From the IMG/VR virus record IMGVR_UViG_2690316285_000005: a DNA stretch of 10,252 nucleotides. One strand, given 5' to 3'. Both the position numbers and the translations under genes were made by a program. Each line of letters opens with the position of its first letter. Within the stretch, counting starts at the first letter, position 1. Below are positions 2,713-6,193 of the stretch, in pieces. This DNA is from a virus. Lineage: Duplodnaviria > Heunggongvirae > Uroviricota > Caudoviricetes. The notes under the pieces were generated by a model that was not told the origin of the DNA, did not search any database, and was given only the letters and a program-made list of their open reading frames with translations.

Positions 2713-3012
2713 ATGAATTTAAACGAATTGAAGAAAAAACTACAACCAGAATTAAAACCACATGAAGTAATGGGTGAAATCATCTTTATTCATCGTCCAA
2801 ATGGTCAGGATTTCCAGAAATGCACTGATGTGGCTAAAACTCTAATCCTATGTGTAAAAGATGAAAATGGTGATCCTATCTTCGCAGAAGAAGATATTGA
2901 TGGACGAATTAATGTTAACTCTATTGATTTTGTAATCCAGAATGAAATTTACTCAGCAATTATTGCTTTAATCAATACTGCGAAACCTGTAGATGAAGTA
3001 GAAAAAAAGTAA
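2713..3012 (+). CDS. Tail assembly chaperone (lambda G-like), the zero-frame product
   Basis: Small acidic ORF directly upstream of the tape measure gene. GGAG at 2703-2706 is 6 nt upstream of the ATG at 2713, which I prefer over the TTG at 2701 or the ATG at 2707. It ends at TAA 3010-3012 immediately after the slippery heptamer. Confidence 0.75.
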   Translation: MNLNELKKKLQPELKPHEVMGEIIFIHRPNGQDFQKCTDVAKTLILCVKDENGDPIFAEEDIDGRINVNSIDFVIQNEIYSAIIALINTAKPVDEVEKK

Positions 3013-3407
3013 GAGGTGATATCGAATTAAAGTACTTTTGTAAGATGGTTAACAAAAGAGGCTTATCACCTGAAGAATACTTTAGTTTAGATCCTGATGT
3101 ACTCAATATGCTTATGATCTACGATACTTTTATAGAACCATCCGGTACGCAGATTGAAATGATGAAACATGCGTACCAGTGTTACTACACCACTATCAGT
3201 AATGGCAACCTAACACCAGAAGCAAGGAAAAGTATCAAGGTACAGGATTTTGATTTTCTTGATGTGCTTAGTGATAGTACTAAGAGTACTTCAGAGAAAG
3301 CTGAAGAAAGAAAATTAAAAACTAAAGAGGCTCAATCCAATGATATTAAATCTATAGGGGAGTTAATTAAATCTCAGGTATTAGGAAAGAAAAAGAATGG
3401 CAAATAA
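2713..3407 (+). CDS. Tail assembly chaperone frameshift fusion (lambda GT-like), produced by a -1 shift at 3003-3009
   Basis: The upstream frame (start 2713, residue 1 mod 3) and the downstream ORF (3045-3407, residue 0 mod 3) are related by a -1 shift. The predicted junction reads ...VDEVEKK / VRGDIELKYFCKMVNKRGLSPEEY..., giving a product of about 231 aa. Its end overlaps the tape measure start (3397) by 11 nt. Confidence 0.65.
3003..3009 (+). promoter_or_regulatory. Slippery heptamer A_AAA_AAG for -1 programmed ribosomal frameshifting
   Basis: In the chaperone frame the codons are gaa-aaa-aag-taa. The heptamer A AAA AAG (3003-3009) is the classic dnaX-type shift site. The -1 frame is open from 2997 (a stop lies at 2994-2996) through 3407, and the downstream ORF has no SD before its first ATG at 3045. 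Confidence 0.7.
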
Positions 3408-5610
3408 TAATAGAATACGTGTAGATATTACGGGTGATTCTTCCGGTTTACAGCGTGCTTTAAGGTCTGGTACTGAATCATTAGAGGAATTTGGTAGTAC
3501 TGCTGGTGGCATTGTTGAAGAGTTCACAGGCCGAATAACTGGTATGGCTGGCGGGTTCGGTACTGCTATGACCGGGATCGCGGGTGCTGCGGCTATTGGT
3601 ATTGGTGGCCTGGCAGCATTAGTAGAATCATCACGTGAATATGTGCGTGAAATGAACCAGATCAGTAAGAGTACCGGATTGTCCGTGGTTCAGTTACAAC
3701 AGCTATCAGCGGCGTTTAGTGGCCTCGGTCTTGAGATTGATAAGTTTGGTGATTTCAACAAGGATACCTTGGATAAGCTCGGTGATGCTTTTCGTGCTGG
3801 CGGTGGTGTATCCGATGATCTTAAAGAATATGGACTCAACCTACAGGACTATAACAAGTACTTAAAACAGGCTGATGGTGGTATGCAGGCTGTGATCCAC
3901 ACCTTTTACGCCATGCGTGATGCAGGTAAATCACAGAGTGAAATAGTTAACGTAATGGAAACGTTAGCCAGTGACTCAAGCCACATGATTAGTACTCTTC
4001 AGCAGTTCAATAATGAGGCTCAAGCTACAGCCTATATCCAGTCACAAAATGCTGAAGTAACTAATGATGCTGCTGAAAAATATGCTGAATTCGATAAAAA
4101 CCTTGGGAAACTTACTACCAGCATTAAAGGTACTATTGCTGATGGCCTATCACCTTTAGTTAATGCCATGAACAGTGTCTATGATGCTGCAAATCAAAAA
4201 CCTCACGAGGCAGGTTTGTTTGAAGATCTGAATGAACGTATTAAAACTTCCAAGGGTTCTCTACAGGATATGTTGGATATCTGGGAAAAATTACGTACAG
4301 CAGGGGCATTAAACTACCAGGGTGCAGCACTCAATACTGGCATCATGGATGATAAGGGCAACAAGGGTAATGAGTTCGCTCAGGCTAAGGCACGTTTAGA
4401 AGAACTGGCAAACAACCTAAAGTCCGATGTTGCGGTTGCTACCGCTCCTACTGGCGGATGGGTTGATCAGGCAAAAGAAGCTGAAGATGCAGCGAAGAAG
4501 TTAGAACAACAACGTAAACAGGCAGAAGCGGCACAAAAGGCGGCAGATGCAAAACGCCTACAGGCTCAACGTAATCTGGAAGCTGCTCTTGCTCAAGTTG
4601 GGGAAGATGGTTTTCAGGTACGTCTACAGCAGTTCGACAGACAACAAAAGGCACTTCTTAAAACCATCACCGATAGTGCTCAAGTACTCGGTATCAATCC
4701 TGATGAAATGCTAAAGAACGCTACTGCATATGGTGCTAAACAACGTACTGATTTACTGAATTCAATGGTTGGTTATCAAGATCCTAATCAGGGTCTGAAA
4801 GATACCAATGCTCTTATTGGTTCCGGTCTACTCAATGACAATCAGAAGGGGTATCTGGCACAGCAACAGAATCAGCGTATCAATGGTGGTAATCCATTAG
4901 CCTATAACGATACCGATCAGAAGTTGAAAGATAACGCTGATGCTATGAATGCTGAACTTCAGCAGAATGAGTTGTTGCTGAAAGGCCATGAGGACTATGA
5001 GAAACGTAAAGCTGAGATCACGGCAAAGTACAATGCACAGGCCATCCAAATCAGTAACCAGAATGCACAGGATCAGTTAAGTATCTTCTCAAGTACTGCA
5101 CAGTCACTATCACAGGGCATGGTTGATGCGTTTGGGGAAAGTAGTGGGGCTGCACAAGCTGCATTTACCCTAAGTAAGAGCATAAGCATTGCACAGACAG
5201 TACTTTCAATTCAGTCAGCATTGGCCCAAGCACTCGCTACCCCTTGGCCAGCTTCATTGGCAAACTATGCACAAGTACTTTCACTTGGTATGTCGATTAT
5301 TAGTACTGCAAAGGGTGCTGCTGCTGGTCAGTTCCATGGCGGGGTAGATGAACTACCAGCAAGTTATGACAACAAATCATTTGTACTTAAGCAGGGCGAG
5401 AGAGTGGTGCAGCCTGAAGCGAATAAGAAATTAACAGCATTCTTGGATAAACAAGAAGGTGGAAGTACTTCAGGTGATATTACCGTTAACGCACCATTGA
5501 TCATCCAGGGTGATGTAGCTGATGATGACAAGAAATTTAATGAGATGCTTAAGAAACACGCCAATAGTGTTTCTCAAGCTGTGAGAAGTAGTCAAAAACG
5601 TAATACATAA
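3397..5610 (+). CDS. Tail tape measure protein
   Basis: 737-aa ORF immediately after the G/GT chaperone pair. It has a Gly/Ala-rich hydrophobic segment near the N-terminus (GMAGGFGTAMTGIAGAAAIGIGGLAAL), long Ala/Gln/Lys-rich, probably coiled-coil, stretches (EQQRKQAEAAQKAADAKRLQAQRNLEAALAQ) and a hydrophobic C-terminal region. This is the typical tape measure architecture. Confidence 0.85.
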   Translation: MANNNRIRVDITGDSSGLQRALRSGTESLEEFGSTAGGIVEEFTGRITGMAGGFGTAMTGIAGAAAIGIGGLAALVESSREYVREMNQISKSTGLSVVQLQQLSAAFSGLGLEIDKFGDFNKDTLDKLGDAFRAGGGVSDDLKEYGLNLQDYNKYLKQADGGMQAVIHTFYAMRDAGKSQSEIVNVMETLASDSSHMISTLQQFNNEAQATAYIQSQNAEVTNDAAEKYAEFDKNLGKLTTSIKGTIADGLSPLVNAMNSVYDAANQKPHEAGLFEDLNERIKTSKGSLQDMLDIWEKLRTAGALNYQGAALNTGIMDDKGNKGNEFAQAKARLEELANNLKSDVAVATAPTGGWVDQAKEAEDAAKKLEQQRKQAEAAQKAADAKRLQAQRNLEAALAQVGEDGFQVRLQQFDRQQKALLKTITDSAQVLGINPDEMLKNATAYGAKQRTDLLNSMVGYQDPNQGLKDTNALIGSGLLNDNQKGYLAQQQNQRINGGNPLAYNDTDQKLKDNADAMNAELQQNELLLKGHEDYEKRKAEITAKYNAQAIQISNQNAQDQLSIFSSTAQSLSQGMVDAFGESSGAAQAAFTLSKSISIAQTVLSIQSALAQALATPWPASLANYAQVLSLGMSIISTAKGAAAGQFHGGVDELPASYDNKSFVLKQGERVVQPEANKKLTAFLDKQEGGSTSGDITVNAPLIIQGDVADDDKKFNEMLKKHANSVSQAVRSSQKRNT

Positions 5611-5620
5611 GAAAGCCCAG

Positions 5621-6193
5621 TTAGGGATTTTCCGTGTGATAAGACAAATATTGTGAAAGAGAAGATGAAAGGGTATAGAGATTGTAATACTCTTCCCGCA
5701 ATAATTTAACTTTAGGTGGTGAGTATTTAATATTGTATGCAAGCTGTGTTGAAAGAGTACGTAATCTCGATAATGAATAATAACTCTTTACGATGGCATC
5801 TACTTCTTTTTTTGGGAGTGATGCTAATTTTTCTAATTGGGAATAATATACATCATCATGCAAATAAGAAACGGCAGTTGCTACTCTTTTAATAGCTTCT
5901 GTATCTTCAGTTGGAAGAGGAATACATATTTCATATGTGCCTAACACCTGAGACTCATCGCCACCAGTAGCAAGAGCTAAAAGGTTATTGTTGATTTCGC
6001 TCAATAAGATTACACGCATCTTAAAAACATCATCTGAACTTTCTTTCCATTTATCATATGCGTTATAGCCTATTTGGCCTGCAAATAACAACATAGCAAC
6101 GATGACGGATGCAGCCTGCCAATCAAGCCTGTTAAAAAAAATACGAATCGAGGTTTTTAAATAAATAAAGAAAGAAGATATTCGAGGTAACAA
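5621..6193 (-). CDS. Hypothetical protein, probably membrane-anchored; moron-like accessory gene encoded antisense to the tail operon
   Basis: The only long ORF on either strand in the 584-bp gap between the tape measure stop (5610) and the next tail gene (6195), and it fills the gap exactly. Read from the TTG at 6193 (an AGGA lies about 8 nt upstream on the minus strand) it gives 190 aa with a hydrophobic segment WQAASVIVAMLLFAGQIGYNAY near residues 25-46. The region is visibly more AT-rich than the flanking genes. The start codon is uncertain: the first in-frame ATG corresponds to 6094-6092 but would cut the hydrophobic segment. No known domain was recognised. Confidence 0.5.
   Translation of the reverse strand: MLPRISSFFIYLKTSIRIFFNRLDWQAASVIVAMLLFAGQIGYNAYDKWKESSDDVFKMRVILLSEINNNLLALATGGDESQVLGTYEICIPLPTEDTEAIKRVATAVSYLHDDVYYSQLEKLASLPKKEVDAIVKSYYSLSRLRTLSTQLAYNIKYSPPKVKLLREEYYNLYTLSSSLSQYLSYHTENP

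Follow-up and report, generated by a model that had tools for sequence, protein, structure and literature searches.

In a lambda-like siphovirus prophage from Shigella sonnei and other Enterobacteriaceae, the genes for the major tail protein and the tape measure flank two small genes that very probably form a G/GT pair, which would arise from -1 ribosomal slippage on the heptamer A_AAA_AAG. The stretch of DNA analysed here (10,252 nt, referred to as the window) originates from a prophage. A G/GT-type mechanism had been proposed in an initial annotation of the window. It is supported by the gene order, the fold of G, the location of T in the -1 frame without a Shine-Dalgarno sequence, and the heptamer with adjoining stop in 55 intact loci. 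The initial annotation had also expected that ORF callers would split the pair into two genes, and both ORFs are indeed listed as separate “hypothetical proteins” in the public sources examined. G/GT frameshifting is conserved among long-tailed phages (PMC5009743); from its sequence, the pair in this prophage family is a new, unannotated instance of this known phage mechanism.

Direct reading of the codons gives GTA at 2998, GAA at 3001, AAA at 3004, AAG at 3007, and TAA at 3010. The slippery heptamer A_AAA_AAG (3003-3009, + strand) includes the two final sense codons of G and is in X_XXY_YYZ register with respect to the G frame. The zero-frame stop TAA (3010-3012, +) directly abuts it. These positions confirm the arrangement as first described. 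The proposed limits of the -1 frame are also correct: TGA at 2994-2996 closes it, and from 2997 it is open to the TAA at 3405-3407. After a slip, this frame would read V R G D I E L K Y F C K M..., where the Met corresponds to the first ATG in the frame (3045). The junction ...EKK-VRGDIELK... suggested earlier is thus accurate as a conceptual -1 reading. The predicted GT fusion has 231 aa and 26.3 kDa, compared with 99 aa and 11.2 kDa for G alone, and its C-terminal part (linker plus T ORF) comprises 132 aa.

For an AT-rich window such as this, the bare heptamer is unremarkable, with 5 copies counted on both strands vs 2.7 expected. In-frame X_XXY_YYZ heptamers are found at 14 of the 3296 codon positions in the window's genes. 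Only at the G/T site is such a heptamer linked to a long -1 extension (132 aa), as all others extend by at most 46 aa. We estimate the chance of an in-frame heptamer within the 16-nt overlap of the two frames at roughly 1-2%. Because the site is also conserved across relatives (see below), the sequence data place it well beyond chance. A further in-frame heptamer, G_GGG_GGG in the fibre gene (947-953), has a -1 extension of only 18 aa and is probably meaningless.

G starts at ATG 2713, with the Shine-Dalgarno sequence GGAG at 2703-2706. A start at TTG 2701, as given by the mechanical ORF list, was rejected because every homologue begins with MNL and GGAG precedes ATG 2713.

The window and the S. 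sonnei genomes share one gene order, namely tube protein, G, T, and tape measure. The major tail (tube) protein gene (2188-2661, +) matches PF08813 Phage_tail_3 (E 2.8e-08) and phrog_158 major tail protein (E 5.8e-19). It is followed by the G-like tail assembly chaperone ORF in the zero frame (2713-3012, +), the T-like ORF in the version of the gene callers (3045-3407, +, 120 aa), and the tape measure protein gene (3397-5610, +). The latter overlaps the end of T by 11 nt, is preceded by a Shine-Dalgarno sequence of its own, and matches phrog_13674 tail length tape measure protein (E 5.4e-86). As the tube gene precedes the pair and the tape measure gene follows it, G and T occupy the canonical chaperone position, i.e., two small ORFs between the major tail and tape measure genes. 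The initial annotation had taken the frameshift as confirmation that 3397-5610 is the tape measure gene; the identification holds by the phrog_13674 match and is independent of the frameshift. Downstream of the tape measure gene, the window contains genes for a distal tail protein, a tail protein, a DUF6950 protein, and a J-like protein.

Identical copies of the 120-aa T ORF are located on Shigella sonnei chromosomes, e.g., HE616528.1. In the first half of this type of neighbourhood, there are a lambda-type terminase, a portal, a protease-capsid fusion, connectors, and an S74-type fibre. The second half has the tube protein, G, T, the tape measure, and distal tail proteins, and ends at the J-like protein. 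Between the stop of the tube gene and the start of G lies a terminator-like hairpin with a T-run (2670-2696, +), consisting of an 11-pair stem followed by TTTATT. The window has two sites of this kind vs 0.5 expected from shuffles. Through this hairpin, the tube protein may be expressed more strongly than G, GT, and the tape measure protein.

An ORF of 190 aa on the opposite strand (5621-6193, -) separates the tape measure gene from that of the distal tail protein and is carried by all S. sonnei prophage copies. Its product has a single hydrophobic helix close to the N-terminus and matches only phrog_3829 (unknown function), with no match in Pfam or PADLOC. It could be a moron or a superinfection-exclusion gene.

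The G part has a tail-assembly-chaperone fold, and all G homologues retain EKK as the protein C-terminus. With respect to PF16459 (Phage_TAC_13) and the HK97 tail assembly chaperone (PDB 2OB9), G is a remote relative and not a family member by Pfam's rule, since its Pfam matches are below the gathering threshold (24 bits for the window protein vs 28.8). T has no Pfam match and belongs to no PHROG family; none of 28 T homologues had a meaningful hit in PHROGs. A structural model of T (pLDDT 73, pTM 0.37) found no match in BFVD (best E 0.57). T therefore appears as an orphan family, whose putative role is assigned by position alone. Profiles of the G and T families, compared with lambda G and T by hhalign, gave probabilities of 0.1-0.2%, i.e., no detectable homology.

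Scans of genome and viral contig collections with a T profile yielded 58 loci with T identities of 37-100%. The prophage family spans Shigella, Escherichia, Enterobacter, Scandinavium, Buttiauxella, Pluralibacter, and Phytobacter. At 55 of the 58 loci, G ends with GAA AAA AAR TAA and T follows in the -1 frame. Among the 49 unique intact relatives, the heptamer is A_AAA_AAG in 39 and A_AAA_AAA in 10, and the stop of G is TAA in all 49. Likewise, neither the GAA nor the initial AAA of the motif varies (49/49 unique sequences). By comparison, control codons for other invariant Lys residues are AAG in 5-14 of the 49, and those for other invariant Glu residues are GAG in 3-11. The -1 frame becomes open precisely with the first heptamer base in 26 of the 49 unique sequences, which leaves an overlap of 10 nt. 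Therefore, in those sequences a shift is possible at the heptamer only.

Neither 50,697 phage records (searched in near and distant modes) nor 5,426 complete E. coli genomes contained a DNA match to the G-T-tape measure segment, and the G protein had none in the same phage records. The T protein matched one of these records, that of phage DCP80, with 36% identity. DCP80 keeps the -1 arrangement with a different heptamer, T_TTA_AAG, located 30 nt before the stop. The record (Escherichia phage, PQ671644.1, L001) has 141 kb and is filed under Straboviridae/Gaprivervirus. At 8139-20408, it contains a siphovirus-type module with G, T, and tape measure, in which all genes are labelled hypothetical. 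The classification or the assembly of this record looks questionable.

Two apparent variants of the junction were discarded. P0024 looked like a natural in-frame G-T fusion, which we attribute to a homopolymer error, as its source is an error-rich long-read assembly (tig00000001) in which the surrounding genes are fragmented. P0064, in which G ends in “EKM,” looked like a variant slip site, and turned out to be an insertion of an IS3-family element into the A-run with the intact junction repeated downstream. The element (HTH_Tnp_1 and rve ORFs; metagenome contig, L065:2790-4160) is positioned exactly in the G/T A-run, and about 70 nt of the G 3' end are duplicated on its far side.

The same EKK-VRGD product would result if RNA polymerase added one A within the A7 run. 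As the protein would be indistinguishable from that of ribosomal slippage, transcriptional slippage has to be weighed through the site itself. The site is a homopolymer (A7 in the window, A8 in 10 of 49 unique relatives), programmed transcriptional realignment is known to occur on A-runs with n > 7 (PMC3711429), and transcriptional slippage is used in Shigella spa13 (PMC5009743). However, A7 followed by G, found in the window as well as in 39 of 49 relatives, is the optimal ribosomal motif and lies below the range of n > 7. Selection for transcriptional slippage would favour longer runs; instead, the run is held in the exact X_XXY_YYZ register. We thus consider transcriptional slippage unlikely as the main route.

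A second explanation is that G and T are separate proteins and that T is translated by reinitiation after the TAA, at the ATG 32 nt downstream and without a Shine-Dalgarno sequence. All 58 loci retain the T ATG, and in intact loci it lies at a constant distance of 32 nt after the stop (35 nt in one clade). Such invariance would be compatible with a start codon too, and gene callers annotate ATG 3045 as a start. On the other hand, the initial annotation had stated that this ATG has no Shine-Dalgarno sequence, and this was borne out. In the window, the anti-Shine-Dalgarno energy is -0.4 kcal/mol at ATG 3045, compared with -6.4 for G and -4.2 for the tape measure gene. The means over 50 unique relatives are +0.3 for the T ATG, -5.5 for G, and -5.3 for the tape measure gene. 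None of the 50 unique sequences has a Shine-Dalgarno sequence at the T ATG, and the energy is worse than the genomic background. DCP80 has Leu, not Met, at the position of the T ATG, and the synonymous sites of the heptamer are frozen, both of which argue against reinitiation.

The strongest sign that ribosomes read on beyond the G stop lies in the 12 codons that separate the slip site from the ATG. This linker (VRGDIELKYFCK, 3009-3044, +, in the -1 frame) is predicted to be translated only after the shift. Among 29 unique linkers, none has a stop in the -1 frame, and every one has stops in the zero frame. The pN/pS ratio is 0.44 in the -1 frame vs 0.99 and 0.89 in the other two, and synonymous variation is seen at the Leu, Tyr, Phe, Cys, Lys, and Asp positions. 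The only length variation in intact loci is one 3-nt insertion (L059-L063). By these sequence measures, the linker evolves as protein in the frame of T, under coding selection and unlike a non-coding spacer. As it behaves as coding, it appears that ribosomes read it and hence that the fusion is made. An alternative start was considered for GAGGTGAT just 3' of the stop, which could have served as a Shine-Dalgarno sequence for a non-ATG codon. It was rejected, as it is not conserved (GAAGTGAT, AAACCGAT, and TTGAGTCT elsewhere) and encodes Arg-Gly-Asp.

Reinitiation might also draw on the three loci without the -1 relationship (L012, L053, and L054), since these retained the T ORF. In all three, a 1-nt insertion 8 nt before the ATG brings T into the zero frame behind the TAA (junction near L053:2974-3021). 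However, this lineage is exceptional: the tape measure gene is split between frames in L053 and L054, and the tube gene in L053 and L012. Because these genes are frame-disrupted, the three loci appear from their sequences to be one decaying prophage lineage. Stop-codon readthrough, considered for these loci with T in the zero frame behind the TAA, was dropped for the same reason. The L012 contig is binned as Erysipelothrix and is probably mis-binned.

Taken as the only source of T, reinitiation is therefore very unlikely; owing to the coding signature upstream of the ATG, it is probably not the main route to T, and some termination-reinitiation at the invariant ATG 3045 may occur. The initial annotation held that T is made only as a fusion. 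The missing Shine-Dalgarno sequence and the selection on the linker in the -1 frame make this likely, but the invariance of ATG 3045 at 58 of 58 loci weakens the word “only.” A third explanation, in which there is no recoding and the heptamer merely encodes a conserved C-terminal EKK with an incidental frame relation, is almost certainly wrong: it agrees with the conservation of EKK in the protein and with the bare heptamer not being rare in the window, but leaves unexplained why GAG and AAG synonyms are absent at the first two codons of the motif, why the -1 frame is open and coding-like from the stop to the ATG in every intact relative, and why T has no ribosome-binding site.

With -1 ribosomal slippage as the preferred mechanism, we infer the following course of translation. 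The majority of ribosomes would translate G (2713-3009) and terminate at the TAA (3010-3012), yielding the 11-kDa G protein. A minority would move one base back on A_AAA_AAG (3003-3009), where the single E. coli tRNA-Lys would re-pair from AAA-AAG to AAA-AAA. The shifted ribosomes would then read GTA AGA GGT... in the -1 frame through 3404, and the GT product of 231 aa and 26 kDa would have the junction ...DEVEKK-VRGDIELKYFCKMVNKRG.... By analogy to lambda, the tape measure protein would be coated by G and by the G portion of GT, the T portion would bring in the tube protein, and both G and GT would be absent from the virion. As in other members of the G/GT class, the two proteins would be expected in a fixed ratio, with each of them required for tail assembly.

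The efficiency of such a shift is expected to depend on the surroundings of the heptamer. In E. coli, A_AAA_AAG ranks among the -1 motifs of highest efficiency, and heptamers without stimulators are 2- to 10-fold above a background of ~0.05% (PMC4066793). Since bare heptamers give only this increase, some stimulator is probably needed. By reading, the sequence upstream of the heptamer (AAACCTGTAGATGAAGTAG) contains no GGAG, GAGG, or AGGA that would indicate a Shine-Dalgarno-like stimulator. An Rfam search found no frameshift element, and its sole match was Termite-leu at chance level (E 0.4).

Downstream, a predicted stem-loop (3014-3071, +) is a possible stimulator. Here, AGGUGAUA (3014-3021) pairs with UAUCACCU (3064-3071). 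The stem begins 4-5 nt past the heptamer and encloses ATG 3045. Its ΔG is -15.2 kcal/mol with z = -3.2 vs shuffles; the folding energy is at the 17th percentile among local windows and is thus unexceptional. RNAalifold gave no consensus downstream structure across the family. Covariation for the 3014-3071 stem was not above the shuffle control, and its register is not conserved. Stems of -11 kcal/mol or lower that start 3-9 nt past the heptamer were predicted for 11 of 17 dereplicated lineages vs 19% of control windows, in a test whose thresholds were set post hoc and whose lineages are related. This enrichment across lineages is suggestive. Usually, the linker codons pair with the codons of an invariant KRGLSP in varying register, reaching about 50 nt downstream (e.g., L059:2993-3058, L009:2996-3061, and L027:3002-3067). 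The strongest of these stems are those of L059 (-26.3 kcal/mol, z = -5.1) and L027 (-19.5 kcal/mol, z = -4.1). The pattern suggests the lineage-specific upkeep of a helix that also encloses the ATG.

The abutting stop could aid slippage as well, via the “shifty stop” route. The invariance of the TAA may equally be attributed to its place within the Val/Ile-Arg/Lys codons of the -1 frame. The strength of TAA as a terminator argues against a long pause at this site. As a rather unlikely extension of the slippage model, the heptamer might not act bare and instead belong to a compound signal composed of the abutting UAA and a long-range helix, individual to each lineage, that buries the AUG. For the stop, the G:GT ratio may then be set by termination kinetics, with slippage in the P site while the ribosome awaits the release factor. 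For the helix, the freely evolving linker codons may pair with the invariant KRGLSP codons and thereby both stimulate the shift and bury the AUG. If such a compound signal is true, T would normally be made only as a fusion, and free T would be possible when the helix is open.

The arrangement resembles the lambda G/GT system (Levin, Hendrix and Casjens 1993; Xu, Hendrix and Duda 2004, 2013, 2014; cited in PMC5009743), in which G/GT is produced by a -1 frameshift. As in lambda, two small ORFs lie between the major tail and tape measure genes, the second one is in the -1 frame without start signals, and a heptamer of the X_XXA_AAG type near the 3' end of G is predicted to give a short G and a G-T fusion. 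Unlike lambda, the heptamer is A_AAA_AAG instead of G_GGA_AAG, and it touches the stop, whereas lambda has 5 sense codons in between. Neither G nor T has detectable sequence homology to its lambda counterpart (hhalign probability <1%), and T is an orphan. Hence, the claim of a conserved G/GT mechanism is valid for the mechanism and the gene position and does not extend to the sequences of the proteins.

The heptamer is identical to that of E. coli dnaX, with the same dependence on a single tRNA-Lys (PMC3711429, PMC4066793). However, the dnaX signal combines a Shine-Dalgarno-like stimulator upstream of the heptamer with a conserved hairpin downstream and shifts at ~50% (PMC3711429), whereas no upstream Shine-Dalgarno sequence is visible here and the downstream stem varies in register. 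In a dnaX-type cassette, the two stimulators would be expected about 10 nt upstream of the heptamer and at a spacing of 5-8 nt downstream, respectively. In addition, the shifted frame of dnaX ends early, while the shifted frame here extends the protein. The stop directly 3' of the slippery run is similar to a “shifty stop” (Weiss et al. 1987, cited in PMC5009743). In this geometry, the P-site tRNA-Lys could slip from AAG to AAA while the A site holds UAA. The best-known “shifty stop” cases are +1 shifts (prfB, antizyme), whereas the shift predicted here is -1. For Paenibacillus larvae phages, AAAAAAG was proposed as the slip site in tail assembly genes (PMC6003738). The heptamer and the gene pair are the same in that case, but hosts and proteins are unrelated, and both cases are predictions only.

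The value of the G/GT assignment lies mainly in annotation, as recognition of the pair fixes the tail-module annotation of the prophage family, including a T part that matches no described family. It leaves the understanding of phage tail assembly and of recoding unchanged. The family provides a natural example of a heptamer flush against a stop, with a frame overlap of 10 nt in many members, and could serve as a minimal test case for the contribution of an adjacent stop to -1 slippage.

Two other genes of the tail region differ among the prophage copies. The gene for the J-like central fibre is interrupted by IS elements in some S. sonnei chromosomes (L002, L004), and these prophage copies are probably defective; in the window, the J-like gene is uninterrupted up to 10228. 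The tail fibre gene (150-2129) has an unusual position upstream of the tube gene and encodes a C-terminal Peptidase_S74 intramolecular chaperone domain. It contains three tandem repeats of 75 nt (25 aa) at 351-578, and the length of the fibre varies among S. sonnei strains (808 vs 883 aa).
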